NCBI GenBank assembly: GCA_965372835.1
Contig: CBDVDV010000001.1
Span: 4,593-68,592, forward strand
Direction: 5' to 3'
Source of the DNA: an uncultured bacterium
GTDB taxonomy: Bacteria; Planctomycetota; DG-23; CBDVDV01
Length of the DNA stretch: 64,000 nucleotides
A program made the position numbers and the translations under genes. Positions 3,647 through 60,006 of the stretch are shown here, piece after piece (position 1 is the stretch's first letter; the number at the start of each line of letters is the position of its first letter). The notes beneath the pieces were generated by a model, which did not search any database, was not told where the DNA came from, and saw nothing but the letters and a program-made list of their open reading frames with translations.

Positions 3647-4681
3647 ATGGCGACGAATCCTCACCACCCTCTGATCGCTGTCACCATGGGTGACCCGGCT
3701 GGCGTCGGCCCCGAGGTCGTGCTTCGAGCCCTGGCTGAAGGCGAACTGGCCGGCGAGGCCAGGCTCCTGGTGGTGGGGACACGCCGGACGCTGGAAGAGC
3801 GAGCCGGGCGCTTTGACCTGCCCTGGGACCTGCCCACTGTCGCCGGGCCCGGGCAGTGTCACGATGCCGACCTTCCCGTGGCCCTCTACGAGACGCCGGG
3901 GTTGGACCTGGCCGAAGTACAACTGGGGCTGGCTTCGGCCGCTGGGGGCCGGGCAGCCCTGGCCTACATTGAGCAGGCCCTGGAGTGGGCACTGACCGGG
4001 GACGTGGACGCTCTGGTTACCGGCCCTATCAATAAGGAAGCGCTGTTGCTTGCCGGCTCGGCCTTTCCGGGGCATACCGAACTGCTGGCGAGTCGGACCG
4101 GCTCCCGGCGGGCGACCATGATGCTGGTGGGTGGAGGACTGCGGGTGACCTTGGTCACCACCCATGTGGCCTTGCGTCGATTACCCGGACTCCTCACGAC
4201 GAAACGCATCCTCCAGACGATTCAGGTGACCAACGAGGGTCTGCGGACGTGGTTCGGCATCGGGTCCCCGCGCATCGCCGTCTGCGCCCTCAACCCGCAC
4301 GGCGGCGACGGGGGCCGGTTCGGCACCGAAGACGTGACGGTGGTGGCGCCGGCTGTGAAGCAAGCCAGAGGCAAGGGCATCGACTGTGTGGGGCCGTTCC
4401 CCAGCGATGCGCTCTTTTACCACGCCCTCCAGGGACGCTATGACGCCGTGGTCGCCCTCTACCACGACCAGGGCCTCATCCCCGTGAAACTGCTGGCCTT
4501 CGACCGCGCGGTGAACGTTACGCTGGGGCTTCCCATCATCCGCACCTCGGTCGATCACGGCACCGCTTACGACATCGTCGAGAAGGGAATCGCCTCTGCC
4601 TCCTCGATGATTGAAGCAGTGAAACTCGCCTCTCGCTTCGCCCGGCGAAAGCGGTCGGCCAAGGGTGCGTCTACGGAGTAG
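3647..4681 (+). CDS. pdxA: 4-hydroxythreonine-4-phosphate dehydrogenase
   Basis: 344 aa. N-terminal IAVTMGDPAGVGPE and HTEL / HGTAYDI motifs typical of PdxA. Classic pdxA-ksgA adjacency. Confidence 0.9.
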   Translation: MATNPHHPLIAVTMGDPAGVGPEVVLRALAEGELAGEARLLVVGTRRTLEERAGRFDLPWDLPTVAGPGQCHDADLPVALYETPGLDLAEVQLGLASAAGGRAALAYIEQALEWALTGDVDALVTGPINKEALLLAGSAFPGHTELLASRTGSRRATMMLVGGGLRVTLVTTHVALRRLPGLLTTKRILQTIQVTNEGLRTWFGIGSPRIAVCALNPHGGDGGRFGTEDVTVVAPAVKQARGKGIDCVGPFPSDALFYHALQGRYDAVVALYHDQGLIPVKLLAFDRAVNVTLGLPIIRTSVDHGTAYDIVEKGIASASSMIEAVKLASRFARRKRSAKGASTE

Positions 4682-5618: not shown

Positions 5619-6691
5619 ACCACCGCGGCCGACGCGCAGCGCTCCGGGAGAAACAGGCCCAGGCCGGCACCGGGGCTCTGCTGGTGACCAGCCAAAGCAA
5701 TGTCCTCTACCTGAGCGGCTTCACTGGCGGAGACAGTTGGCTCCTTCTCGCCGGCGAGCGGGCCGTCCTGCTGACCGATTTCCGCTACCGAGAGCAGGCC
5801 GAGAACGAGGCGCCCGACCTGGAAGTGGTCACGAGAAGCAACAACACGCTCGTCGATCTCGTTGCCAGCCTGCTGGCTGACGGCGCCCGCCTGGCTTTTG
5901 AAGCAGCGCACGTCTCCTATGCCGACTACGGCCGACTGGCCGAAAAGGTGGGCGCCGACCGTATGCACCCGGCTGAAGGGTGGGTAGAGGAACTGCGAGT
6001 CGTCAAGTCCCCGGAGGAGGTGGAGCGCATTCGCCGGGCCATTGCGGTGGCGGAAGAGAGTTTCCAGGAGACACGGGGGCAGATCCGGCCAGGGATGCAA
6101 GAGAAGGAGTTGGCCGACGAGTTGGTGCACCGGATGCGCCGACGGGGCGCCCAGGTGGAGTCCTTCCCGGTCATCGTGGCGGCCGGGGAACGGGGGTCGC
6201 TCCCCCACGCTCGTAGCACGGACCAGCCGATTCAGGCGGGCGCGAGCGTCCTGGTGGATTGGGGGGCGCGGGTCGGTTTCTACAATTGCGACTTGACACG
6301 GGTGCTTTTCGTGAGTAGCATTCCAAGTTTGTTGAGGACAATTTACCCTGTGGTTTTGGCCGCGCAGCAGGAGGCTTATGAAGCCTCTCAGCCGGGACGC
6401 GCGCTGGGCGAGGTGGACCAAGCGGCCCGCGCCCTTATCGCGCAGGCCGGATACGGGGAGGCCTTCGGACACGCGCTCGGGCACGGCGTGGGCCTGGAGG
6501 TACACGAGCGGCCGACGGTCCGCCAGGGAGCTGAAGAACTCGCGCGAGCAGGGATGGTGCACACGATCGAGCCGGGCATCTACCTGCCCGGGGTGGGAGG
6601 GGTCCGCATCGAGGACATGGTGCTCCTGGGAGAGACCGGGGCGGAACGGATGACCACTCTGCCCCGTGACATCGAGGCGATGGTGGTGTGA
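5609..6691 (+). CDS. pepP: Xaa-Pro aminopeptidase (M24B family)
   Basis: 360 aa. Creatinase N-domain plus C-terminal metal-ligand signatures (HGVGLEVHE, EPGIY, IED). Confidence 0.85.
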   Translation: MPMNHRGRRAALREKQAQAGTGALLVTSQSNVLYLSGFTGGDSWLLLAGERAVLLTDFRYREQAENEAPDLEVVTRSNNTLVDLVASLLADGARLAFEAAHVSYADYGRLAEKVGADRMHPAEGWVEELRVVKSPEEVERIRRAIAVAEESFQETRGQIRPGMQEKELADELVHRMRRRGAQVESFPVIVAAGERGSLPHARSTDQPIQAGASVLVDWGARVGFYNCDLTRVLFVSSIPSLLRTIYPVVLAAQQEAYEASQPGRALGEVDQAARALIAQAGYGEAFGHALGHGVGLEVHERPTVRQGAEELARAGMVHTIEPGIYLPGVGGVRIEDMVLLGETGAERMTTLPRDIEAMVV

Positions 6692-13934: not shown

Positions 13935-13963
13935 TTGAGCCCGCTGCATGTCTGTGGGATAAT
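13935..13963 (+). promoter_or_regulatory. Promoter TTGAGC-N17-GATAAT for tRNA-Ser
   Basis: Hexamers with 17-nt spacing placed about 15 nt upstream of the tRNA 5' end. Confidence 0.45.
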
Positions 13964-13977
13964 TCATTTCCGTAGAA

Positions 13978-14070
13978 GGAGGGGTGTCCGAGTGGTTGAA
14001 GGAGCACGCTTGGAAAGCGTGTAGGCCCTCTTAAGGGGTCTCGCGGGTTCGAATCCCGCCCCCTCCGCCA
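13978..14070 (+). tRNA. tRNA-Ser (anticodon GGA), type II with long variable arm, CCA encoded
   Basis: Acceptor stem GGAGGGG/CCCCTCC, D-loop AGTGGTTGAA, anticodon loop TTGGAAA, long extra arm, T-loop GGTTCGAATCC, 3' GCCA. Confidence 0.9.
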
Positions 14071-14173
14071 TTAGACGCACCGGTCGCTCCGCTCCGGGTT
14101 TGCTCATGGTAAACCATTTGGGTTTCTGCCCCGGCAAAGAGGCCGACAGGTTCGCAGGGGCGCGGCGAATGGC

Positions 14174-14195
14174 GCCCTGAGCGTGTCGAAGGGCA
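14174..14195 (+). promoter_or_regulatory. Leader motif GCCCTGAGCGTGTCGAAGGGCA upstream of metG
   Basis: 21/22 identical to 36619-36640 upstream of the serpin gene. Potential 5-bp stem GCCCT/AGGGC. Confidence 0.5.
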
Positions 14196-14250
14196 GACCT
14201 GCGACGTGCGACCTGGGACTTGCCGTTTCCAGTGCCGAGGAAGGCTACGA

Positions 14251-15936
14251 ATGGGTAGGAAGTACGTCGTCACCAGTGCCTTGCCCTACGTCAACGGGGT
14301 CAAGCACCTGGGGAATCTCATTGGGTCGCTGCTGCCCGCTGACGTCTACGCCCGCTGGCTCAGGCTCCAGGGCGAAGACGTGCTCGCCGTCTGCGGGACC
14401 GACGAGCACGGCACCCCGTGCGAGATCGCCGCGCTCGAAGAGGGAGTGCCCGTAGCCGAGTACGCTGAGAAGTACTATCGCATCCAGAAAGACATCTACG
14501 AACGCTTCGGGCTCAGTTTCGACCACTTCGGGCGCACCTCCAGCCTCCACAACCACCGGATGACCCAGCACCTCTTCCTTCGTCTCTACGAAAACGGCTA
14601 CGTGTCTGAGCGGGAGACCAAGCAACTGTACTGTGTGGATCACGACCGGTTTCTCCCGGACCGCTTCGTCATCGGCACCTGTCCCATCTGTGGTTACGAG
14701 CGGGCCCGGGGCGACCAGTGCGAAGCCTGCGCCAGGCTCCTGGACCCGGAAGAACTCATCAATCCGCGCTCGGCCGTCTGCGGGGGAAGCAACCTCATCC
14801 TCAAGTCGTCCCGCCACCTCTTCCTCGACCTGCCCAAACTCAAGGACCGTGTCAAAGTCTGGGTGGACACCAAGGGGCATTGGCCACGCACCAGCCGCTC
14901 TATCGCCTACAAGTGGCTGGGGGAGGGCCTGCGGGAACGCTGCATCACCCGCGACCTGGAGTGGGGCATCAAGGTGCCGCTGGAGGGCTACGAAGACAAG
15001 GTTCTCTACGTCTGGTTCGATGCGCCCATCGGCTACATCGGCATCAGCATGGAGTGGGCCGAACTGCGCGGTGAGCCCGAGCGCTGGCAGGAATACTGGA
15101 AGGACCCGGAGACGCGTCTGGTGCAGTTCATCGCCAAGGACAACGTGCCCTTCCACACGGTGACCTGGCCGGCCACCATGATGGGCGCGGACGACGGCTT
15201 CGTCCTGGCCGACATGGTCAAAGGCTTCCAGTACCTCCTCTACGAGGGGGGCAAGTTCTCCACCAGCGAGGGCCGCGGTGTCTTCACCGACCAGGCCCTG
15301 GAACTGTTCCCGGCTGACTACTGGCGATACTACCTGCTCCTGATTGCGCCAGAGCGCGGGGATTCCAACTTCGAGTGGCCGGGCTTCCAGCAGGCCGTCA
15401 ACAAGGACCTGGCCGACGTGCTGGGTAACTTCGTCCACCGCACCCTCACCTTCATCCACAGCCGGTTCGACGGCACGGTGCCGGCAGCGCAGGGCCTCAC
15501 TCCACGTGACCTGGCCATGCGGGAGCGCACAGGTGAGCTCGCCGAGCAACTAAAGACGGAGATGGGACTCTATCGCTTCCAGATGTCGGTGCGGGCGCTG
15601 CGGGAACTGTGGCGTGAGTGCAACCGGTACTTCGACGACAGGGCCCCCTGGCAGGCCGTCAAGACGGATCGGGCCGACGCGGCCACTACGCTGTCAACCG
15701 CCACGCACCTCTGCCGGAGCATCGCCGTGCTGACCGCGCCCTTCCTGCCTCATACCTCGAGCGAGATCTTCTCCTTGCTGGGCCTCAAGGAGGACGTCCA
15801 CCAGGGCCGTTGGGGGCAGGCACTGGACTTCGAATGCCTGTCAGGACGGGCTCTGCCAGCCAAGCCCAAGCCACTCTTCAAGAAGGTCGAAGACGAACAG
15901 GTTGCCCAACTTCACGACCGTTTCGCCGGTGAGTAG
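14251..15936 (+). CDS. metG: Methionine--tRNA ligase (short form, no C-terminal tRNA-binding extension)
   Basis: HLGN (HIGH-class motif), zinc knuckles CPICG...CEACAR, and KMSKS-like KFSTSEG. Start at ATG 14251 after RBS GAGGAAGG. Confidence 0.93.
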   Translation: MGRKYVVTSALPYVNGVKHLGNLIGSLLPADVYARWLRLQGEDVLAVCGTDEHGTPCEIAALEEGVPVAEYAEKYYRIQKDIYERFGLSFDHFGRTSSLHNHRMTQHLFLRLYENGYVSERETKQLYCVDHDRFLPDRFVIGTCPICGYERARGDQCEACARLLDPEELINPRSAVCGGSNLILKSSRHLFLDLPKLKDRVKVWVDTKGHWPRTSRSIAYKWLGEGLRERCITRDLEWGIKVPLEGYEDKVLYVWFDAPIGYIGISMEWAELRGEPERWQEYWKDPETRLVQFIAKDNVPFHTVTWPATMMGADDGFVLADMVKGFQYLLYEGGKFSTSEGRGVFTDQALELFPADYWRYYLLLIAPERGDSNFEWPGFQQAVNKDLADVLGNFVHRTLTFIHSRFDGTVPAAQGLTPRDLAMRERTGELAEQLKTEMGLYRFQMSVRALRELWRECNRYFDDRAPWQAVKTDRADAATTLSTATHLCRSIAVLTAPFLPHTSSEIFSLLGLKEDVHQGRWGQALDFECLSGRALPAKPKPLFKKVEDEQVAQLHDRFAGE

Positions 15937-15977: not shown

Positions 15978-17495
15978 ATGCGCTGGGTACTCTGGGCCGT
16001 GTTTCTTGGCGCGCTTGTCGCGACGGCGGGGGCGGGAACGACCGTGACGGTCGAAGCCGGAAAAGACATCGGCCCGGTGCCGAGGGCCCTCTTCGGCACC
16101 AACCTCCGGCCCAACATGGAGAGCAAGGACGCCGTCCTGGAGTTCCTCCGTGACACGGGCATCACGGTCTTTCGCTACCCCGATGCCCGCGATGGTGGCT
16201 ACGTCTGGAAGTGGCCCGAAGGGGTGATGCTGCGACAGGGCAAGCCCTCGATCTCCTGGCTGGGTAGGCTGGACGGCGTCGTCGAGTTCGCCAGGCAGGT
16301 GGGAGCCGACCTGACCTTCACCGTCCGCATCCAGGGAGGCGCCACCGCTGAGGAAGCGGCCGAAGTGGTCCGTCAGGTCAAGGCCCGGGGCATCACCGGG
16401 GCCTACTGGTGCCTGGGCAACGAACCGTATTTCAAGAGCAGTCAGGAAACCTACGTCGCTCCGGAAGACTACGTCAAACTGACCCGCCGATTCGTCTCGG
16501 CAATGAAGGCCGTTGACCCCACTGCCAGGGTGGGTATCGCCTGGGGTGGGCAGTACATCAACCGCCAGAGCGACCCTGGCCGCGACGAGAAGGTCCTGGC
16601 CGGGACCGCTGATGTCATCGACTTCATCGACCACCACTTCTACACCGGCCGACCACAGGGCAATGAAGACCCCTGGGACCCGATGAAGATTGTCGCCGGC
16701 GCTCTGCGGGTGAAGCAGGACGTGGACTACTTCAGGGAGATCTTCCGACGCGTCGCTCCTGCGCACGCCGAGCGCATCGAGATGCACTCCTGGGAATGGA
16801 GCGGACCGCCCTGGCCCAGGTGCGGGGGGATGCAAAGGCTGGCGACAGCGGTCTTTGCTGCCGATGCCCTGGGTGAGTTTGCTCGCAACGGCATCACCCT
16901 GGCTTGCCAGTACAATCTTCAGGAGCACCACTGCGGGCTTATCCCGGGCTACACCAAGGAGTGGGAAGGTGGCTACGAGACCAGCCCCTGGAACGGGAAG
17001 ACTGTGCGCCCGCTGGCCTACGCCATCAAGTTGTGGAGTCGATACATGGGTCCGGTGTTAGTGGAGTGCTCCGTCGCCGGCGCCTCCACCTACCACACCG
17101 AGGATTGGCACACCTACGTCAACTATCAGGGGGACGTGCCTTACCTCACTGCCCACGCCACCCGCTCCCAAGACGGCAAGACCCTTCACCTGATGGTTAT
17201 CAGCCGACACCCTACCGACGATCTCGAAGCCACCATCAGGCTGCGGGGGTTCCGCCCGAGAGCCGAGGTGACCGTGCGCACGCTCAACGGCCCCGACTTC
17301 CTGGCCCACAACGACTACTACAAGGAAGGTGACTGGCGCAGTTGGCGTTCCGTTGCCGACGTGCCTCCCATCACCTGCACCCTGAGCGAAGATCGGACCC
17401 GCCTCGCCTTCACCGCCGGCGGTGACCAGGCGACGGCTGAGTACACTTTCCCCGCGCACTCGGTGACCCAGTTGGTCTTTGAGCGGGCTGAGTAG
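15978..17495 (+). CDS. Secreted glycoside hydrolase, clan GH-A-like (GH39/GH30/GH51-type fold)
   Basis: Signal peptide MRWVLWAVFLGALVATAGA. Catalytic-acid-like WCLGNEPY motif typical of (beta/alpha)8 GH-A enzymes. Family assignment not resolvable by eye. Confidence 0.55.
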   Translation: MRWVLWAVFLGALVATAGAGTTVTVEAGKDIGPVPRALFGTNLRPNMESKDAVLEFLRDTGITVFRYPDARDGGYVWKWPEGVMLRQGKPSISWLGRLDGVVEFARQVGADLTFTVRIQGGATAEEAAEVVRQVKARGITGAYWCLGNEPYFKSSQETYVAPEDYVKLTRRFVSAMKAVDPTARVGIAWGGQYINRQSDPGRDEKVLAGTADVIDFIDHHFYTGRPQGNEDPWDPMKIVAGALRVKQDVDYFREIFRRVAPAHAERIEMHSWEWSGPPWPRCGGMQRLATAVFAADALGEFARNGITLACQYNLQEHHCGLIPGYTKEWEGGYETSPWNGKTVRPLAYAIKLWSRYMGPVLVECSVAGASTYHTEDWHTYVNYQGDVPYLTAHATRSQDGKTLHLMVISRHPTDDLEATIRLRGFRPRAEVTVRTLNGPDFLAHNDYYKEGDWRSWRSVADVPPITCTLSEDRTRLAFTAGGDQATAEYTFPAHSVTQLVFERAE

Positions 17496-20593: not shown

Positions 20594-20867
20594 AGAGACG
20601 CCCTCATCGGCAGGCCTGCCCGCACGACCTGCCCCTGCCAGCAGCCCGCGCCTCAGCCCGGTTCCCTCTCTTCGATTGTGCCTTTCCCCCGTCGAGGTGT
20701 CAACGAAAAGCCCCGGGCTCCAGGGGCCCTGTCCTGCGGTGTCCCGGGGCGTTGCCCGCGTCAGAGACGGAATGTGTGCTTGCTTCGGTGCCCTGATGAG
20801 CGCCCCCCCCGACCCCTTGCCGGTTGGTCTTTTGCCTTGACAGGACCGGGTTCTGCGGTATGTTTGT

Positions 20868-21790: not shown

Positions 21791-22063
21791 CCGGTCGTGC
21801 TAAGCGGGGAGGTAGCGGTGCCCTGTACCCGCAAACCGCTAAAGCGGGGCCGAATTCCTTCCCGAGGGCTCTGCTTCCTCGGACGTATCTTCGGCACGTG
21901 GTGATGAAGGTCGGGTCCTATGCAACAGGGCGGCGTGAACCTGGTCAGGCCTTGACGGGAGCAGCCATAAGCGCATGTCCCTGTGTGCCGTAGGGTCGCC
22001 TGGCTGGAGCCAACGACTGCAGAGCGTCCCTGGAAGGGGGTTCGACGGAAGGTGCACGACCGG
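21791..22063 (+). ncRNA. ffs: Signal recognition particle RNA, long Bacillus-type form with Alu domain
   Basis: GUGCUAAGCGGGGAGGUAGCGGUGCCCUGUACC...GGCCGAAU Alu-domain segment, domain IV GGUCAGG..GGAGCAGCCAUAAG..GUGUGCCGUAGGG, and a terminal helix CCGGUCGUGC/GCACGACCGG. Matches my recollection of B. subtilis scRNA over most of its length. Sits upstream of dnaX as in Firmicutes. Confidence 0.85.
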
Positions 22064-29950: not shown

Positions 29951-31939
29951 ATGGGGAGATCGCTTCGGCTGTTGTGCGCCATGGCGCTGGTGGCCGTCAC
30001 CTGCACGGCGGGGGGCGCCCTGGGCCAGGAGAAGCCTGCCGTCCGGCAGGTAGAACTTGCGGTGTCAGCCGGCTTTGAGAACCACGTGCGGGCCCCCTGG
30101 GCCCCGCTCATAGTGACGGTGCGCAACCCGGCGTACGGTGGGGAGGCGCTGCGCGGGCAACTCGTCTTCGAAGGAGGTCAGCAGCGCCAGGGGTTCCGCA
30201 GTTACCGAGACGTCTACCTGGGACCATCGGCCGCCAAACGCATCACCTTCTACATTCCAGAGGCGTGGGGCAAGGTGAGCTTCCTAGTCGACGGGAAGTC
30301 GGTGAGCGAGGTGGACGTGCGGGGGGCGGGGCGCTACGGTTGGACCGAGGAGTTGTTGGTGGTGCTCTCCCGCCGACCCGGGGTGTTGAACTTCCTGGAG
30401 TACACCCCTCGCAGCGCGGGGACGGGCTACCGTGGCGGAGTCACCAGGCAGGTAGCCCAGGTGAGCGATGCGGCCTCAATGCCGGACCGTTGGGCCGGCT
30501 ACAGTGGGGTAACGGCCGTCATCCTGAACGACTTCGAGCTCAGCCGCCTGTCAGGCCCCCAACAACGGGCGCTGCTCGGCTGGGTCGAGACGGGGGGTCG
30601 GCTTATCATCTCTCCTGGGCCGGAGGCCCGTTGGCTCCTTCAGCCCCCCCTGGACCAGTTGCTCGGACTGCAACTGCTGGGCAACCAGGAAGTCCGCCAG
30701 GCCCCCACGCTGGAGCGGCTGTACGGAGCGTTCGAGGGTGAGGGCAAGTTCCTCCTGCACCAGTTGCGCTCCTCGCGGGCGCTGTTTCTCGGCGCCCCGG
30801 TGGGGGAGTGGCCGAGTTACGTTGGGGTGACGACCGGGGCCGGCGTGGTGGTGGTGATAGCCTTTGACGTGGGGGCATTTCCCTTCCGTGGGTGGTCGGG
30901 CGCTTCGGCCTTCTGGCAAGCGGTGCTGGACAACACCAAGCACGGCCCGCGCCCTTCCTGGACGCAGACTCAGCAGCCCGGCTACCCGGGCCAGCCGTCG
31001 GCGTCAGGGGACGCGCTGAAGGTGCTCTCGGCCATGGCGGCCAAGACGACTTCGGCGCTGCTCATCGTCGGGCTGGTAGGGCTGTACGTGCTCTGCGTGG
31101 GGCCGCTGAACTACCTGGCGCTGAGGGACTACCGTCGGCGGGTGTGGCTGGTGGTCACCACCCCGCTGGTGGCGCTGGGGTTTGTGGTTCTGGTCGGGAC
31201 ACTGGGCGTCCTGGGTCGGGGCATCAGTTCCTTGAGTCAGCACCTGACGCTGCTCACGGTGTGCGGGGACGTGGAGTCGGCCTACCAGCGGAGCTACGTT
31301 GGCCTGTGGTGCCCCACTTCCGGCGCTTTCGACCTGGAGGGCTCCGCGGACGCTTTCATCCGGCCTCTGGTCGCCGGGCCTCAACGGGCGCTTTGGCAAC
31401 GGGTGGGGGCGGCGCGGTTCGCCGAGCGCAACGTGCTGGAGGAGTGTCAGTTTCGGGTCAACGAGTTGCGCTGCTTCCAGGTGGACGCGGTGCGTCCGTT
31501 GGGCGGCAGGCTGGCGCTGCGTCGGGACCGGGAGGGGCTGGTGCTGGAGAACGAAACCGACCTCGACCTCCGGGCGGCCTACATCGAGGCGGGTGGGGAG
31601 ACCATTCTGTTCGGCGACGTGGCGGCTGGGGAAAGCCGACCAGGACGCGTCAGGCCCTCTTCAGATGGTCGCTGGAGCCGAACGGTCTGGCTCGAGGGCC
31701 TGGCTCCGGAATGGGTTCCTGGTAGTGGGGTGGGTCCCGGCAGGCAAAAGAACGTGCTGGACCTTCTCTGGAGCGTGGTGGACGGGGTGACCGGGATGGT
31801 GGTCCGGTCGACGTCGGGACGCGTGTACCGTCTGAACGCGGCGGTGGGGAACCTGGAGGAGCCGTTGCGGGTGCGGGGTGGACGGGTACGAGGGCAGCGG
31901 GAGTTGGTGCTGCTTCGGGCCTACTTGGCGGTGGAGTAG
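29951..31939 (+). CDS. Hypothetical secreted/membrane protein (663 aa)
   Basis: Signal peptide MGRSLRLLCAMALVAVTCTAGGALG. Central segment ILNDFELSRLSGPQQRALLGWVETGGRLIISPGP and an internal TM pair. No confident family call. Confidence 0.55.
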   Translation: MGRSLRLLCAMALVAVTCTAGGALGQEKPAVRQVELAVSAGFENHVRAPWAPLIVTVRNPAYGGEALRGQLVFEGGQQRQGFRSYRDVYLGPSAAKRITFYIPEAWGKVSFLVDGKSVSEVDVRGAGRYGWTEELLVVLSRRPGVLNFLEYTPRSAGTGYRGGVTRQVAQVSDAASMPDRWAGYSGVTAVILNDFELSRLSGPQQRALLGWVETGGRLIISPGPEARWLLQPPLDQLLGLQLLGNQEVRQAPTLERLYGAFEGEGKFLLHQLRSSRALFLGAPVGEWPSYVGVTTGAGVVVVIAFDVGAFPFRGWSGASAFWQAVLDNTKHGPRPSWTQTQQPGYPGQPSASGDALKVLSAMAAKTTSALLIVGLVGLYVLCVGPLNYLALRDYRRRVWLVVTTPLVALGFVVLVGTLGVLGRGISSLSQHLTLLTVCGDVESAYQRSYVGLWCPTSGAFDLEGSADAFIRPLVAGPQRALWQRVGAARFAERNVLEECQFRVNELRCFQVDAVRPLGGRLALRRDREGLVLENETDLDLRAAYIEAGGETILFGDVAAGESRPGRVRPSSDGRWSRTVWLEGLAPEWVPGSGVGPGRQKNVLDLLWSVVDGVTGMVVRSTSGRVYRLNAAVGNLEEPLRVRGGRVRGQRELVLLRAYLAVE

Positions 31940-36483: not shown

Positions 36484-36618
36484 CCGAGAGAAGCGCTCGG
36501 ACCACGTCGCTCCGTTGGTTCTGACCGGGCGGGTCGGGAGCGAAGTCCGCGCGCGGGTGCGCTTTCGCCTCAGCCCACAGCGCCGAGCGGCCGACCCACG
36601 GTTCGACAAGCTCACCGT

Positions 36619-36640
36619 GCCCTGAGCCTGTCGAAGGGCA
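36619..36640 (+). promoter_or_regulatory. Leader motif GCCCTGAGCCTGTCGAAGGGCA immediately upstream of serpin RBS
   Basis: Near-identical to the metG leader motif. A degenerate third copy (GCTCACCGTCCCGAGCAACGTCGAAGGACAG) lies at 59910-59940. Confidence 0.5.
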
Positions 36641-36654
36641 AGGAGGAATGGGAT

Positions 36655-37878
36655 ATGAGCAGGCGGGACCGCGCCTTGACGGTGGTGATGTTGTTGAGCG
36701 GGCTCCTCGTCTGGGGAGCCACCGAGGCCCTCTCCGCACCCCAGGACGCCGATGCAGGGGCGCTTGTCAGGGGGAACAACACCTTTGCCCTCAACCTCTA
36801 CGGAGAGTTGAAAGAGCAGGAAGGCAACCTGTTCTTCTCTCCCTTCAGCATCTCGGCGGCTCTGGCCATGACCTACGGCGGGGCGCGGGGGAATACCGCA
36901 GCGCAGATGGAGCAAGTGCTGTATTTCGAGGTGACGGCGGAGCGTCTGCACCAAACCTTTGCCCAGCTACTGGAGCAGCTGAATGCTCGAGGCAAGAAGG
37001 GGGGCTATCAACTCAGCGTGGCCAACGCCTTGTGGGGCCAGCAGGGCGTCGGCTTCCTCAAGAAGTTTCTCGACCTCACCGAGAAGCACTACGGCGCCGG
37101 GCTTCAGCAGGTGGACTTCGCCGCTGCCACTGAGGCTGCTCGCCAGACCATCAACGCCTGGGTTGAAAAGGAGACCCAGGGCAAGATCAAAGACCTCATT
37201 CAGCCGGGCGTCCTGAACGCCTTGACCAAGTTGGTGCTGACTAACGCCATCTACTTCAAGGGTACCTGGGCCGAGCAGTTCGACAGGAAGGCGACGAGAG
37301 ACACACCCTTTACCCTGGCCACCAGGCGGCAGGTCAAAGTCCCGATGATGCACAAGACCGAAAACTTCGGCTACACCGAGGCAGAGGGTTTCCAGGCCCT
37401 CGAACTTCCCTACGCAGGCGATGACCTCTCCATGGTCATCTTCCTCCCCCGCGAGGTCGATGGCTTGGCGGCTCTGGAGAAGGAACTTTCCCTGGAGAAC
37501 CTGGAGAGTTGGCTGGGCGGGCTGCGCCGACAGACGGTACAGGTGTCGCTGCCCAGGTTCACCATGACCTCAGAGTTTGGACTCCAGGACGTGCTCAAGT
37601 CGCTGGGCATGACCGACGCCTTCTCAGGCGCCGCCGACTTCTCGGGCATGACCGGCAGGAGAGACCTGTTCATCTCGGCTGTCATTCACAAGGCCTTCGT
37701 GGACGTCAACGAAGAGGGTACGGAGGCGGCAGCGGCCACCGCGGTGGTGATGATGACGAGCGCAGCGCCGAGGCCCCCCGTGGTCTTCCGGGCCGACCAC
37801 CCCTTCCTCTTCCTCATCCGTGACAACCGGTCAGGCAGCATCCTCTTCATCGGCCGACTCGTGAACCCGAAAGCATAG
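36655..37878 (+). CDS. Serpin (serine protease inhibitor), secreted
   Basis: Signal peptide. NTFALNLY, FSPFSISAALAMTYGGARGNTA. C-terminal serpin signature and reactive-centre-loop region (EEGTEAAAATAVVMMTSAAP...FRADHPFLFLIRD). Confidence 0.9.
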   Translation: MSRRDRALTVVMLLSGLLVWGATEALSAPQDADAGALVRGNNTFALNLYGELKEQEGNLFFSPFSISAALAMTYGGARGNTAAQMEQVLYFEVTAERLHQTFAQLLEQLNARGKKGGYQLSVANALWGQQGVGFLKKFLDLTEKHYGAGLQQVDFAAATEAARQTINAWVEKETQGKIKDLIQPGVLNALTKLVLTNAIYFKGTWAEQFDRKATRDTPFTLATRRQVKVPMMHKTENFGYTEAEGFQALELPYAGDDLSMVIFLPREVDGLAALEKELSLENLESWLGGLRRQTVQVSLPRFTMTSEFGLQDVLKSLGMTDAFSGAADFSGMTGRRDLFISAVIHKAFVDVNEEGTEAAAATAVVMMTSAAPRPPVVFRADHPFLFLIRDNRSGSILFIGRLVNPKA

Positions 37879-42871: not shown

Positions 42872-42900
42872 TTGACAGGGTGGGTGCCCCTACATATAGT
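42872..42900 (+). promoter_or_regulatory. Sigma70 promoter TTGACA-N17-TATAGT upstream of dnaE
   Basis: Near-consensus hexamers. A perfect hairpin GAGCCC-TTCGAC-GGGCTC follows at 42935-42952 in the leader. Confidence 0.5.
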
Positions 42901-42968
42901 GCCTGAAAGGCGACTGTAGGTGTCTGCTTCCGAGCCCTTCGACGGGCTCAGGAGAAGGGAGAATAGGC

Positions 42969-45900
42969 ATGGCGAACTCCGATTTCGTGCATTTGCACGT
43001 TCACACCCACTACAGCCTGTTAGACGGCGCCTGTCGGCTGGAGGAGTTGTTCGAGGCGGCGAAGAAGTTCGGCATGCCCGCGCTGACCATCACTGACCAC
43101 GGCAACATGTTCGGCGCCATCGAGTTCTACGAGGGCGCCCTGCGGGCCGGCCTCAAGCCCATTATCGGCTACGAAGCGTACGTTGCCCCGGGGAGCCGAT
43201 TCGACCGCGAGGCCCGTGGCGGCGAGCCCGCATCCCACCACCTGACGCTCCTGGCCCGCAACACCCAGGGTTACCATAACCTCATCAAGTTGGCCTCCGC
43301 TGCGTACCTGGAGGGCTTCTACTACCGGCCTCGCATCGACAAGGAAATCCTGACGCAGCACGCCGAGGGCCTGGTGGCCCTGACCGGGTGCCTCAGCAGC
43401 GAACTGTCCCGCCTGCTGCTGGCCGACGATTACGACGGCGCCCGCCGAGCGCTACGCCAGTGGCTGGACATCTTTGGCGCCGAGCACGTCTTTGTCGAAC
43501 TCCAGGATACGGGCATCCCGGAACAGCGGAAAGTCATCCGGGGCGCAGTAGCGCTGGCCAAGGACCTGGAGGTCCCCGTGGTGGCCACCAACGACGTTCA
43601 CTACCTTCGCCCCGAAGACGCCCGAGCCCACGACATCCTCCTGTGCGTCAACACGGGCAAGTTCGTCGACGACCCGGACCGGATGCGCTTCGCCAATGAC
43701 CAGTACTACTTCAAGAGCCCGGAGGAGATGGCCGAGGCCTTCCGCGAGGTCCCCGAGGCGGTGACCAACACCCGTCGGGTGGCTGACCTGTGCGCCCTGG
43801 AACTCTTCTTCGAGGAGAAGCACCTCCCCCGCATCCAGGCCAGCCAGGAAATGACCAACACCGCCTACCTGCGCCGGTTGTGCGAGGAGGGGTCCCGACG
43901 CCGCTACGGCGAGGTGACCCCCGCCGTGGGGGAGCGCCTGGAGCGCGAGTTGGGGATCATCGAACGGATCGGCTACGCCTCCTACTTCCTCATCGTGGCC
44001 GACTACGTGAACTACGCCCGCGACCGGGGCATCCCGGTGGGTCCGGGTCGGGGCTCGGCGGCCGCGTGCTTGGTGGCCTACGTCCTGGGCATCAACAACA
44101 TCGATCCCATGAAGTATGACCTGATGATGGAAATCTTCCTGGATGAGAAGCGCCGGGAACTTCCGGACATCGACGTGGATTTCTGCCAGGACGGCCGCGA
44201 GGAGGTCATCCGCTACGTCCGCGAGAAGTACGGCGAGGACAAGGTGGCCCAGATCATCACCTTCGGGACCATGAGGGCTCGGGCGGTGGTGCGGGACGTG
44301 GCCCGGGCCCTGCGCGTTCCCTTCGAGCAGGCCGATCGGCTGGCCAAAAAGATACCCGCCACTCTGGGCATCACCCTCAAAGAGGCGCTGGCCCAGGACG
44401 CCGAACTCCGCCACGAGTACGAGAGCGACCCCACGGTCCACGAACTCTTCGAGATCGCTTTCCGTCTGGAAGGACTGGCCCGTCACGCCTCCACCCACGC
44501 CGCCGGGGTGGTTATCGCCGATAAGCCGCTGGTCGACTACACTCCCCTCTACCAGTACAACGATAGCGTGGCCACCCAGTACGCCATGGAGTCGCTGGAG
44601 CGCATCGGCCTCTTCAAGTTCGACTTCCTGGGTCTGCGCACCCTGAGTACGTTGCAGCGGGCGGTGGAGATCATCGAAGCCCGCCGAGGCGAGCGCATCG
44701 ACCTGGATGCCCTGGACATGGCCGACCAAGCCACCTACGAGATGCTCTCCCGGGGTGAGGCAACGGGGGTTTTCCAGATGGAGTCGTCGGGTTTCCGCGA
44801 CCTCCTGGAGAAGATGAAGCCCGACCGCTTCGACGACCTGGTCGCCCTCAATGCTCTCTACCGCCCCGGACCGCTGAAGGCCGGGGTGGTGGACACGTTC
44901 GTCGCCCGCAAGCACGGTCGCGAAACCCCCACCTATGAACACCCGCTCCTGGAAGAGATACTGGGAGAAACCCACGGCGTCATCGCCTACCAGGGCCAGG
45001 TGATGCGCATCGTCAGCCGCCTGGGCGACATCGACCTGGCTGACGCCTACACCCTCACCAAGGCCATCAGCAAGAAGCAAGAGGACGTCATCAACTCCAA
45101 CCACGACGACTTCGTCAAGGGCGCCGTGGCCAAGGGCATCAGTCGGGATTCGGCCGAAAAGATCTTCGAGCATATCCTCTATTTCGGCGGCTACGGCTTC
45201 AAGAAGTGCCACTCCACCTGCTACGCCCTCATTGCCTACCAGACCGCTTACCTGAAGGCGCATTACCCGGCCGAGTTCATGGCCGCGCTCATGACCTATG
45301 AGATGGGCGACAGCGACAAACTCACCCAATACCTCCAGGAAGCCAGGCGGATGGGTCTGCGGGTGCTTCCGCCCGACGTCAACGAGAGCGACAAGGACTT
45401 TACCGTGGTCGCCGATGACACCGTCCGCTTCGGCCTGCAGGCCGTCAAGGGTGTCGGGGGTAAGGCCGTGGAGGCCATCCTGGCCGCCCGCCAGCAGGAG
45501 GGGGGCTTCCGGTCGCTCCACCAGTTCTGCGAAGTCGTGGACCATCGACAGGTGCACAAGGCCGTCATTGAAAGCCTCGTCAAGTGCGGGGCCTTCGACT
45601 CGCTGGCGGCGCGACGGGCTCAACTGTTGGCTGCCCTGGACGGGGCCATGCGCGCCGGTGAGCGGGTCCAGGCCGATCGCCGAATCGGTCAGATGAATAT
45701 CTTCGACCAGTTGGCGGACGGGACTGCGGCGGCGGAGCCCCCGCAGTTGCCCGACGTCCCTGAGTTCCCGGAGCCGAGGCTGCTGGCCTTTGAGAAGGAG
45801 ACCCTGGGCTTCTACCTCTCCAGCCATCCCCTGGCCCAGTACGAGCACCTGCTCAAACGGTTCGCCACGGCGACGGCCGAAGACTTGGCCGAGCGGCCGC

Positions 45901-56308: not shown

Positions 56309-57686
56309 GCGCCTTCACTTCGAGCAGTTCACCGTACCCCACGATCTTCCAGTAGATGGGACAGGCGCCATCGCACATCTCGAATAACTCGCACGATTGG
56401 CAGACTTCGTGAGCGTACCGTTTCTCCTGGTAAAACCGGGCCCGCTCACCTCCCCAGACCTCTTCGAAGGGCTGCGTGAGCAGGTTCCCCACCGGCTGGG
56501 TCAGGCTGGAGCAGGGAAGGACGTCGCCGTTGGGGGCCACCGAGAGGAGGCCGTCGCACGCTGCGCACCCCTTGTTCCCCAGGCCTTCGGCCACGGGGTT
56601 GAAGATGCAGTAGGGCGTCGGCGAGTACCAGAGGAACTGCACCCCAACCCTTCGTGCCGCGCGCTTCACTTCCCGGACCACCTCCCCTATCTCGCTGTAA
56701 CTGACCCAGAGTTCCTCGGCTCCCGGCCCTGCTGAGCCACAGGGGATGACCATGTTCATCGAGAAGCGGTCCAGCCCCAACCCCTTCATCAGCGCGGGCA
56801 GTTCCACCAACTCGTCCAGGTTAGCCCTTGTGGCAGTCGTGTTGGTGTGGACGGCGACGCCGGCCCGGCGAAGGTGCTTGACCCCCCTAAGGCTGGCCTC
56901 GAAGGAACCCGGCACCTGAGTAAGACCGTCGTGCGTCGCCGCGGTCACCCCTTCCAGGCTGACCTGGGCACTGTCCAGGCCTGCCCCGCGCAGGCCCTGA
57001 GCCGCCTGAGCGTCGATTAGGGTCCCGTTGGTGATGAGGTTGACTCGCAGCCCCGCCGCCTTGGCGTGGCCGACCAGTTCGACGATGTCGTCGCGCAGCA
57101 TGGGCTCCCCGCCGGTGAAACTGGTGGAGGGTACCTGGGCTTGGTGACGGATGATGTCGAAGATGCGTTTCACCTGGGCCGTGGACATCTCCTCGGTCTC
57201 ATCGTCCTGATGACAACTGCAGGAGGCGTAGCAGAAGAGGCAGGAGAGGTTGCAGCGATAGGTCACAGCCACCTCGCTCAGGACGGGAAGCAGGTTGTAG
57301 GGTCGGCGGAAGGGCACCGTCTCCACGGCCCGCCTCCCCTCCCCTTCTCCCAGACAGCCCACCAGGAGCGCCCGCAGGTCGCAGAAGAAGTGGTGGACGT
57401 CGGCGCACCTGGCCGGGTCGTCGGCGTGAGGCCCGAGGACGTCGAAGACGCTTTCGCCGTCGAGCATCCGCCCCAGGAGTTCGAGGCCGGTACGGTTCAG
57501 TTTGTAGGCCTGGTTGGGAAGGAGAATGAGCAGTTCGTCGGCCTGGCGCACGGCGACGTAAGAGCGGATCTGCCTCACGAACTCATCCGTCCAGCCGATG
57601 TCCACGTGCTCGGCGGCGGGGCTGGGCGTGGAGACCGACGACAGCGGACACCCGTCCCTCACCCCTGATTCCGGTCGCCCGCCCAT
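56280..57686 (-). CDS. Radical SAM enzyme with N-terminal PqqD-like RRE and C-terminal SPASM domain (peptide/protein-modifying maturase)
   Basis: CNLSCLFCY (Cx3Cx2C), GGEP glycine-rich SAM motif, and a SPASM Cys cluster (CGSAG...CIFNP...GCAACDG...LPC...CQSCELFEMCDGAC). N-terminal LLILLPNQAYKLNRTGLELLGRMLDGESV is PqqD/RRE-like. ATG at 57686 overlaps the upstream stop as TGATG; the track's longer ORF to 57770 overlaps the repeat region. Confidence 0.85.
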   Translation of the reverse strand: MGGRPESGVRDGCPLSSVSTPSPAAEHVDIGWTDEFVRQIRSYVAVRQADELLILLPNQAYKLNRTGLELLGRMLDGESVFDVLGPHADDPARCADVHHFFCDLRALLVGCLGEGEGRRAVETVPFRRPYNLLPVLSEVAVTYRCNLSCLFCYASCSCHQDDETEEMSTAQVKRIFDIIRHQAQVPSTSFTGGEPMLRDDIVELVGHAKAAGLRVNLITNGTLIDAQAAQGLRGAGLDSAQVSLEGVTAATHDGLTQVPGSFEASLRGVKHLRRAGVAVHTNTTATRANLDELVELPALMKGLGLDRFSMNMVIPCGSAGPGAEELWVSYSEIGEVVREVKRAARRVGVQFLWYSPTPYCIFNPVAEGLGNKGCAACDGLLSVAPNGDVLPCSSLTQPVGNLLTQPFEEVWGGERARFYQEKRYAHEVCQSCELFEMCDGACPIYWKIVGYGELLEVKAHGQVLPTRT

Positions 57687-59386
57687 CAGTGCGCTCCCCC
57701 GCTCACGCACGCCCCGTGGCAGGCCGAGTGACACGCTGAGTGGCACGCCGAGTGACAGGCACTGTGACACGCTGAGTGACAGGCGTCGTGGCAGGCGGTG
57801 TGGACATAGCAGGCGCTGTGGCAGGCATCGGATTTGATGAAAGCAGCGTAGTTGGTGGCCGCTGCGGGCTGGTGTTCCTCGACGGAGCGTCGCATGCGAT
57901 CGATGCGGTCTCCCCGGTCGTAGTCGTCGTTGTAGTAGTGGTGATAGTAGTACCCGTAGCGGCGGGGATAGCGCTCACCCCAGGCGTACTCATGCTCCTC
58001 GTCCATGTTCTCGGGCGTGGTGGAGCGGGCCAGGGCGGCGAAGAGCCCGCTGTAGTACTTCTTGGTGGCGGGCAGGTCGGAGTCCCAGCACTTGCGCTGG
58101 ACGCCGTCGGATAGTTCGGCGTAGAGCCCGTTGAGCCGCCTCTGGGAGAGGGTGCCGTCGGCCTGGACGGTGTCGAGGAAGAGTTTCTCGTAGGAGTTTC
58201 GGGGTTGGTAGCGAAGGGAGGTGCGCTCGATGGTGAGGGGATCCTCGCTACGGATGTAGAGGGCCCCCCGCTGCTCCAGGTCGGCGCAGATGAGGCAGGT
58301 GATGGTGCTCAAGGGGATGTCCAAGAGCAGCCCCGCCTCGATGACGTTCAGGCGCGCGATCTTCCCCTTCTTGCGGAAGGTGGCCACCTTGATTTTGGGT
58401 GGCACCCAGATGTTGCTGTCCCAGCGTACCTCCTCCAGCGCTTCGCCCGCTTGCTGCAAAGACCCGTGCTTGAGACCCATGGCCACCACGGCAGCCACCA
58501 CCAGCACCACCACCGCCAGCACGGCCGCCAAAGGAATCCCCTTGCCCAGTTTCTTGACCGCCCCGGGGATTCGGCCTTTCTCGATTCTCGCCCCTACACC
58601 GACCGCTTCCTCGGCGCGGGTGCTGCCGAGCGTGGGGAAATACCTTGCGGCGATGTACTGCTGGACGAGGAAGTGGAACTCCTTCGGTGCCGACTTCTTG
58701 TGCAAGAGGATGGTGAGCCAGTTCTTGCCCTGGTAGGGCGTGGCCCGGTAGTCGATCTTGTACTGCTCGTTCATGAACTTCTCAGTGCGGAAGGTGACCT
58801 CCTCGAGGAACTCGGGTGCGACCTTGAGCACGTTCCCTTCGGCCGCCACGCGTTCGGGCGGCACCTCGATGGGGTAGTGGACGTAGACGGTGTAGTGCTC
58901 CAGCGCTTCCGCCCGTTGTACGGGTGCCCAACCCAGGACGACCAGTTGACCCAGGCCCGGGGCCTCCGTCAGTCCCAGGTTCTTACTGGCCACCAGGTCG
59001 GCGGCATAGTGGACGATGTAGGTGGTTTCCCCTGGCCCGAAGGCCTGTTTTCCGGCCAGCACTACGTCGTACTTACGGTCCGAGACGTGGGCGATGGAGA
59101 GGGGGTAACGGCGCCCACCGGCTTGGGCGTGGGAGGTCTCGAAGTTGAAGACCGGGGTCTCCTGCATCCCTTCCAGGTAGAAGCCGTGCATCTTGCCGCT
59201 GGTGACGGTCCAGCGCAATTTGTAGACGATGTCGGCCTTGCCGTCCTGGCGCAGCGACAGATCCACCTCCACCCAATGCAGTTTCGCGGAGACGGCTGCC
59301 TGGGCCGTCGGCGCCAGGACCCAGAGGAGCGCCACGACCAGGGCCGGCAGTAGTAGTCGACGGACTTCAAGCGCTCGCCTGAACAC
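57686..59386 (-). CDS. Signal-peptide/TM protein (DUF2207-like architecture) ending in a tandem (Ala-Cys-His-Ser)n repeat; candidate substrate of the adjacent radical SAM enzyme
   Basis: Signal peptide MFRRALEVRRLLLPALVVALLWVLAPTAQA. TM helix IPLAAVLAVVVLVVAAVVAMGL. Tyr/His-rich segment. C-terminal SDACHSACYVHTACHDACHSACHSACHSACHSACHSACHGACVSGGAH. Confidence 0.8.
   Translation of the reverse strand: MFRRALEVRRLLLPALVVALLWVLAPTAQAAVSAKLHWVEVDLSLRQDGKADIVYKLRWTVTSGKMHGFYLEGMQETPVFNFETSHAQAGGRRYPLSIAHVSDRKYDVVLAGKQAFGPGETTYIVHYAADLVASKNLGLTEAPGLGQLVVLGWAPVQRAEALEHYTVYVHYPIEVPPERVAAEGNVLKVAPEFLEEVTFRTEKFMNEQYKIDYRATPYQGKNWLTILLHKKSAPKEFHFLVQQYIAARYFPTLGSTRAEEAVGVGARIEKGRIPGAVKKLGKGIPLAAVLAVVVLVVAAVVAMGLKHGSLQQAGEALEEVRWDSNIWVPPKIKVATFRKKGKIARLNVIEAGLLLDIPLSTITCLICADLEQRGALYIRSEDPLTIERTSLRYQPRNSYEKLFLDTVQADGTLSQRRLNGLYAELSDGVQRKCWDSDLPATKKYYSGLFAALARSTTPENMDEEHEYAWGERYPRRYGYYYHHYYNDDYDRGDRIDRMRRSVEEHQPAAATNYAAFIKSDACHSACYVHTACHDACHSACHSACHSACHSACHSACHGACVSGGAH
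57700..57832 (-). repeat. Imperfect tandem 12-nt repeats encoding (ACHS)n
   Basis: Plus-strand units such as gagtgacaggca / ctgtgacacgct / gagtgacaggcg / tcgtggcaggcg. Synonymous variation between units keeps the peptide repeat exact. Confidence 0.8.
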
Positions 59387-59854: not shown

Positions 59855-60006
59855 TGCTCGTCCTCCTCCTGCAGTTCGGACCCCGCCGGCCGGCGAATCG
59901 AAAGGGCAGGCTCACCGTCCCGAGCAACGTCGAAGGACAGATCGTCCCCTCGACGTTGGCGAGCCCTTTCACCGGTGGTCGATTCTCCACAACAGCGGGA
60001 GCGAAA

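Follow-up and report, generated by a model that had tools for sequence, protein, structure and literature searches.

The window, by which we mean the whole 64-kb stretch of DNA analysed here, carries a short hairpin-forming motif in three places: the spacer between a tRNA-Ser gene and metG, the leader of a serpin gene, and the leader of dnaE, whose ATG lies at 42969. The genes and signals adjoining these places are the following.

13935-13963: promoter-like site of the tRNA-Ser(GGA) gene, TTGAGC-17-GATAAT, kept in relatives (promoter scan)
13978-14070, plus strand: tRNA-Ser(GGA) (ARAGORN, Rfam)
14097-14125: terminator-like hairpin with T-run, upstream of unit A, in this lineage only (terminator scan)
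14251-15936, plus strand: metG, methionine--tRNA ligase, as read from its translation; homologues have tRNA-synt_1g domains
36655-37878, plus strand: serpin gene (Pfam PF00079, E = 4.9e-136)
42872-42900, plus strand: promoter-like site of dnaE, TTGACA-17 nt-TATAGT, a conserved block in the alignment with the relatives L250 and L251

Across the window, Rfam and ARAGORN report two tRNAs, for serine and glycine, and an SRP RNA of the large bacterial type (197 bits, 21795-22059) directly upstream of dnaX. Among named organisms, MetG and the oxidoreductase encoded next to the serpin gene are closest to Planctomycetota/Brocadiia MAG proteins with 65-70% identity, and metagenome relatives reach 80-100%. 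The organism is no Firmicute, and the remark of the initial annotation that metG leaders of Firmicutes are usually T-boxes is inapplicable to it. Outside its own clade, MetG is closest to the Asgard archaeal enzymes (Heimdall-, Hod- and Kariarchaeia, 53-59% identity), which have an extra C-terminal tRNA-binding domain, and typical bacterial MetG is less similar to the protein encoded here.

The motif had been recognised in the initial annotation as a pair of 22-mers, GCCCTGAGCGTGTCGAAGGGCA at 14174-14195 and GCCCTGAGCCTGTCGAAGGGCA at 36619-36640, and both the positions and the single mismatch between them are borne out. The first lies 55 nt before the metG ATG at 14251, as had been stated, and the second does adjoin the ribosome-binding site of the serpin gene, ending 1 nt before the AGGAGG that precedes the ATG at 36655. 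A covariance model built from the repeat unit, R1, was run over the 64-kb window without filters and returned four units at the three sites. Two of these, the dnaE-leader unit (42933-42960) and a minus-strand unit in the serpin leader (36597-36624), had been missed in the initial annotation. The units, together with two segments that R1 did not return, are listed here.

14144-14167, minus strand: candidate decayed partner of unit A, reading GCCCCTGCGAACCTGTCGG on that strand
14168-14195, plus strand: unit A, in the tRNA-Ser-metG spacer; R1 29.3 bits, E = 1.1e-5; includes the exact 22-mer; stem GCCCT/AGGGC, loop GAGCGTGTCGA
36597-36624, minus strand: unit B1, left half of the twin, in the serpin leader; R1 34.2 bits, E = 4.4e-7; stem ACGGT/ACCGT and loop GAGCTTGTCGA on the minus strand
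36613-36640, plus strand: unit B2, right half of the twin, in the serpin leader; R1 33.0 bits, E = 9.9e-7; includes the exact 22-mer; stem GCCCT/AGGGC, loop GAGCCTGTCGA
36598-36640, no strand assigned: twin-hairpin element of 43 nt, (C)ACGGTTCGACAAGCTCACCGTGCCCTGAGCCTGTCGAAGGGCA, in which B1 and B2 overlap on opposite strands
42933-42960, minus strand: unit D, between the dnaE promoter and ribosome-binding site; R1 18.3 bits, E = 0.013
59900-59970, no strand assigned: palindromic intergenic segment between minus-strand Big_5 and PALP ORFs, the purported third copy

Unit D, a single variant unit with loop GAGCCCGTCGA and a broken outer stem pair, first surfaced in a looser search as a minus-strand copy at 42936-42951, just 5' of the dnaE start. 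With respect to the downstream gene the motif is thus on the plus strand at metG, on the minus strand at dnaE and on both at the serpin gene. The segment at 14144-14167, which the R1 scan of the window did not detect, is on a reading of its letters probably a decayed partner unit of A; when 14140-14200 is folded as RNA, 14144-14160 pairs with 14171-14189 to give a longer hairpin whose 5' arm is 14144-14167. Two further weak blastn matches, at 30255-30282 and 56438-56472, were set aside as noise or as too decayed for a verdict.

Chance similarity of GC-rich sequence would need little more than the high G+C content, which is the one point in its favour, and it is already refuted as an account of the 22-mers: no match to the pair arose in 100 dinucleotide-preserving shuffles even with up to 3 mismatches tolerated, the R1 E-values run from 1e-5 to 4e-7, and homologous copies with conserved flanks number in the hundreds, as described below. 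We accordingly give it practically no credence.

The third, rearranged copy that had been placed at 59910-59940 does not stand on the same footing. Its similarity to the serpin copy is marginal (blastn, 77% identity over 35 nt with 3 gaps, E ~0.09-0.2), no better than that of some coding-region noise, and R1 did not detect it at E <= 10. The GGCGAAT that it has in common with the metG copy is a trivial 7-mer, and the plus-strand terminator-like hairpin with a T-run described at 59965-59992 was absent from the terminator scan, the flanking genes being on the minus strand. The segment 59900-59970 does fold as a long hairpin on the minus strand (z = -2.5); if it belongs to the repeat family at all, it is a strongly decayed member. 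Some 2 kb away, near the junction of two minus-strand ORFs, 57707-57790 holds about 7 tandem copies of a 12-nt unit (GCACGCCGAGTG / ACACGCTGAGTG) that perhaps encode a short peptide repeat.

Filled and empty sites in relatives

Each site was compared with the corresponding region of relatives. At metG the element is present in a 97% relative (L121) and absent in four 80-82% relatives (L122, L124, L125 and L127), all of which keep the order PRK, tRNA-Ser, metG, with a spacer of about 40 nt between tRNA and metG vs. 180 nt in the window. The growth of this spacer from about 40 to 180 nt in the window lineage is a gain of more than the repeat unit. At the serpin gene the twin is present in a 98% relative (L248) and absent in an 88% relative (L249); in a 93% relative (L254) the serpin leader, ribosome-binding site and start codon align well and about 42 nt are missing exactly at the twin, and an R1 scan of that leader found no unit. 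At dnaE, the TTGACA-17-TATAGT promoter and the leader recur in two 84% relatives (L250 and L251), in which about 20 nt are missing at unit D. The converse is seen in L122: a twin of its own, built in the same way, lies between ccmE and a PPIase gene, at a site that is empty in the window. The metG, serpin and dnaE sites are recent, independent, lineage-specific insertions in this Planctomycetota-like lineage.

The promoter-like block upstream of dnaE (42872-42900) has a near-alike counterpart upstream of the PPIase gene (20836-20866); the two read CTTTTGCCTTGACAG... / GGGCTTGACAG...TACATATAGT, and they are kept in relatives (L250; L122 at 17383-17415).

These comparisons bear directly on the possibility, named first in the initial annotation, of a shared cis-regulatory RNA, that is, a leader hairpin by which metG and the serpin gene would be co-regulated. 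Units A and B2 do lie on the sense strand in 5' leaders, with B2 abutting the ribosome-binding site, and the hairpin itself is backed by covariation. The conservation at the orthologous leader that would be expected of a cis-regulatory leader RNA is, however, not seen at metG, at the serpin gene or at dnaE: the element is found only in the 97-98% relatives and is absent from the same leaders in the relatives at 80-93% protein identity. The dnaE copy, moreover, is antisense, copies occur in either orientation, and members of the family adjoin unrelated genes, lie between convergent genes or are found inside ORFs. No Rfam family matches at the gathering threshold. A shared cis-regulatory RNA is thus largely refuted and we regard it as very unlikely; the motif does not place metG, the serpin gene and dnaE under common control, and a false lead is thereby removed.

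Taxonomic spread and arrangement of copies

The search for further copies that had been proposed earlier found the same core in many phyla. The 20-mer GCCCTGAGCNTGTCGAAGGG occurs in at least 120 species genomes from more than ten phyla, in a one-genome-per-species collection, and in at least 120 IMG/VR contigs. Among the carriers listed, the isolates are Alpha-, Beta- and Gammaproteobacteria and Actinomycetota (e.g. Sphingomonadales, Burkholderiales, Moraxella and Microbacterium), while the MAGs include Chloroflexota, Acidobacteriota, Cyanobacteria, NC10, Armatimonadota, CPR lineages (Saccharibacteria, Peribacteria) and Planctomycetota (Sedimentisphaerales). The E. coli genomes and isolated phages that were searched gave no match. 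Most copies have CCGTTC in front of the 20-nt core, and since this flank is conserved though it lies outside the query, the copies must be homologous rather than chance matches.

The copies are often paired. An inverted partner follows 1-99 nt downstream in 98 of 258 copies, the usual doublet being CCGTTC-GCCCTGAGCTTGTCGAAGGG-spacer-GGCTTCGACAAGCTCAGCCC-GAACGG; in 13 the partner is upstream, as in the window, and 150 are apparently solitary, many of these forming the tip of a longer, lineage-specific hairpin. Sphingobium chromids have the motif at up to 22 places per ~1 Mb, all unannotated. Units were also noted in clusters or in regular tandem arrays, the periods being about 24, 37 and 49 nt (L060 at 3786-3953, L112, L004, and L259 at 5840-5966), and in L259 four units fall within 130 nt, in a BIME-like mosaic. 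CRISPR was considered for such tandem arrays and rejected, the 'spacers' being identical.

Many of the IMG/VR loci with the core (L131, L141, L148, L164, L166, L169 and L181 among them) share one conserved gene cluster, and one ORF family recurs in up to 30 loci; the cluster may represent a prophage of the carrier taxa, or a region resembling a gene-transfer agent.

A junction search of metagenomes with the identical twin found it on 8 contigs in 7 distinct contexts. All 8 carry (C)ACGGTTCGACARGCTCACCGTGCCCTGAGCYTGTCGAAGGGCA, and the flanks of the 7 contexts diverge right outside the ends of the element and show no direct repeats. There is no target-site duplication at the twin, and the filled and empty serpin leaders agree in this. 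The 42-nt twin is a multiple of three in length and is stop-free in several frames, and in three metagenome ORFs it lies in frame as an insert of 14 residues: L260 at 141-184, L261 at 1313-1356 and L262 at 938-981. The ORFs concerned are an IS1595-like transposase, an ABC-type ATPase and a Lys-rich small ORF. The insert reads TVRQAHRALSLSKG, or ALRQAQGTVSLSNR when it comes from the other strand, and its context in the transposase is EPGS[TVRQAHRALSLSKG]TVHTDGW. The repeat thus yields in-frame 14-residue inserts in real proteins; it is probably also the cause of many spurious ORFs, and annotation should mask the motif as a repeat.

Structure and covariation of the hairpin

The unit, about 21 nt long, is a variable, self-complementary stem of 5 bp with a T-A closing pair and a conserved 11-nt loop, GAGCYTGTCGA. 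The window-lineage pair is the 43-nt twin CACGGT-TCGACAAGCTC-ACCGTG/CCCT-GAGCCTGTCGA-AGGGC. The 5-bp stem GCCCT/AGGGC that had been drawn for the two 22-mers is present in both, around an 11-nt loop, and across hundreds of copies it finds support in covariation. The evidence comes from a set of 418 distinct units with the loop GAGCNTGTCGA, taken from ~2.1 Mb of fetched loci. The loop-proximal stem pairs, 1-4, are paired in 93-96% of these units, and the stems exchange their bases in a compensated manner (CCC/GGG, GGC/GCC, TGC/GCA, TGG/CCA and TCC/GGA), the full forms being GCCCT/AGGGC, GGGCT/AGCCC, GTGCT/AGCAC, GTGGT/ACCAC or ACCAT, and GTCCT/AGGAC. In an 80-sequence sample, pre-filtered for at least four of the five pairs (383 of the 418 units pass), 116 cells were changed on both sides and the covariation score was 0.73 vs. 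0.22 for shuffled data, none of 500 shuffles reaching 0.73; a shift of the partner by one column makes the score collapse. At the fifth stem pair G-T was counted 101 times and A-C 12 times, an excess which hints that the strand with the GAGC loop is the one that folds.

The invariance of the loop is partly an effect of ascertainment, copies having been fetched by an exact match to core or loop. Partner units located by the flanking GAACGG alone, a set that corrects for this only in part, have loops within 2 mismatches of the consensus in 47 of 54 cases, and their stems vary.

The two units of a doublet nearly always have different stems that are not complementary to each other, and the variable loop position combines between them as expected of independence (T/A 56, C/A 37, T/G 34, C/G 26). 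The non-complementary stems and the independence at the loop position favour two adjacent hairpins over one long hairpin, and the latter was rejected on these comparative grounds as the selected structure of doublets, although for the window twin the energy model prefers, contrary to the covariation, a single long hairpin in which loop pairs with loop.

The same compensation weighs against a double-stranded DNA operator, bound by a transcription factor that governs a small regulon. Such an operator would accord well with the identical 20-nt core in three promoter-proximal regions of the window. The stem halves, however, vary with compensation, which points to formation of a hairpin rather than recognition of a fixed duplex; the sites are insertion-polymorphic; and a core present in more than ten phyla, with up to 22 copies per Mb in the Sphingobium chromids, is too abundant and too widespread for a local regulon. 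We consider an operator extremely improbable.

Relation to known repeats and proposed spread

Taken together, the observations make it highly probable that the motif is the unit of a small, dispersed, REP/REPIN-like repeat and not a regulatory signal common to metG and the serpin gene; 'a small repeated element' had in fact been offered as a fallback in the initial annotation, and correctly so. Like REP, BIME and REPIN sequences, it consists of 20-40-nt hairpin units that are, among the copies surveyed, mostly extragenic and often in inverted pairs or mosaics, that are probably present in many copies per genome, and that are free of target-site duplication and variable in presence between close relatives; its 21-nt unit, with a 5-bp stem and 11-nt loop, falls within the 20-40-nt imperfect palindrome by which a REP is recognised. 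Unlike them, it has no GTAG/CGTC tag at the foot of the hairpin, the 5' flank being CCGTTC in most taxa and (C)ACGG in the window lineage. Here, too, it is the loop that is conserved and the stem that varies, the reverse of classical REPs; one core extends across more than ten phyla, where a class of REPs is confined to a species or genus; and no RAYT stands beside any copy examined.

By analogy with the proposed spread of REP/REPIN elements by tyrosine (HUH) transposases of the RAYT/TnpA-REP kind, the copies would be spread in trans by a factor recognising the hairpin on single-stranded nucleic acid. Such a factor would account for the conserved loop on compensated stems, and also for insertions with sharp ends and no duplicated target. 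Any effect on expression of metG, the serpin gene or dnaE would be a side effect of position, e.g. of a hairpin beside a ribosome-binding site, rather than a regulatory logic that the genes have in common. With E. coli RayT as tblastn query, neither the window nor ~2.1 Mb of copy-bearing loci yielded a RAYT-like gene, and units are absent from the flanks of three RAYT homologues from Methylomonas and Chloroflexota plasmids. Clustering of neighbouring ORFs gave no recurrent gene family at the genome loci, recurrences being confined to related IMG/VR contigs.

Other small elements resemble the repeat less closely. Rickettsia palindromic elements (RPEs) likewise insert in frame into genes, as seen here in the three metagenome ORFs, but they are 100-150 nt long, are found only in Rickettsia and have no sequence relation to the present family, most copies of which are intergenic. 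MITEs are also small, non-autonomous and multicopy, with inverted symmetry; the element is far shorter (21-43 nt), makes no target-site duplication and has no related full-length IS. An IS or MITE origin was considered and rejected: in L029, two copies 2.3 kb apart flank no more than an ordinary membrane-protein gene, with no transposase between them, and the clustering of neighbouring ORFs described above showed no recurrent family at the genome loci.

The family is unusual among small bacterial repeats in that one 20-nt core, its stems covarying, recurs in groups as far apart as Sphingomonads, Burkholderiales, Chloroflexota, Actinomycetota and Planctomycetota. In the literature covered, exact DNA, RNA and peptide strings of the element matched only primers, by chance, and two surveys of REPs, Nunvar 2010 and Di Nocera 2013, do not contain the core in text or supplement. 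A bolder reading, which we put forward only tentatively and think rather less likely than not to hold as a whole, is that of an uncatalogued pan-bacterial hairpin module in which a near-invariant 11-nt loop, GAGCYTGTCGA, is combined with a freely covarying 5-bp stem, in units of 21 nt or twins of 42-43 nt. In that case the loop-conserved, stem-variable design in more than ten phyla might imply one widespread protein or a horizontally travelling enzyme, and this protein might read the loop on single-stranded DNA or RNA by a logic unlike that of the classical REP-RAYT system. If one factor does recognise the loop, knowing its identity would tell how DNA modules this short come to be spread over the genomes of bacteria. 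That the family is an uncatalogued, phylum-spanning hairpin module meriting attention is possible but unproven.

A repeat origin, which we prefer, is compatible with local co-option of individual copies as structural elements. The inserted hairpins would then hold back 3' exonucleases, offer a site to an RNase, pause or weakly terminate transcription behind the upstream gene, or modulate the start of translation; we consider such roles, taken jointly, unlikely. Local effects of this kind have been reported for E. coli REP elements in the accounts drawn on here, and B2 ends 1 nt from a ribosome-binding site. Convergent gene pairs enclose about twice as many family members as divergent pairs do (25 vs. 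13, by crude ORF calls), and a related doublet belongs to the expressed sRNA family RF02901. Against this, no U-run follows the element, orientation is unconstrained, with no strong bias relative to neighbouring genes, and copies are gained or lost freely between close relatives. Scans for intrinsic terminators (a G+C-rich hairpin followed by a T-run) found none at the elements, the sole nearby site being that at 14097-14125, upstream of unit A.

The Rfam search that had been suggested earlier gave no match at the elements with Rfam 15 at the gathering threshold, in the window and at six canonical loci, and a scan by E-value added only miRNA-like hairpin noise and sub-threshold matches to RF02901 (AaHKsRNA41, Aggregatibacter sRNA 41). 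That family has long hairpin arms, CUGAGCUUGCCGAAG / UUCGGCAAGCUCAG, that form the same kind of doublet, though it is one sRNA locus with a terminator and not a dispersed repeat; repeats are not discussed in the paper from which it derives. The window copies are not matched by RF02901, and canonical doublets of proteobacteria score 26-45 bits against it (best 44.8), vs. a gathering score of 97. Such sub-threshold matches lie in L113 (3392-3524), L018 (3267-3433) and L026 (3956-4079), and the RF02901 family may itself be a transcribed instance of the repeat.
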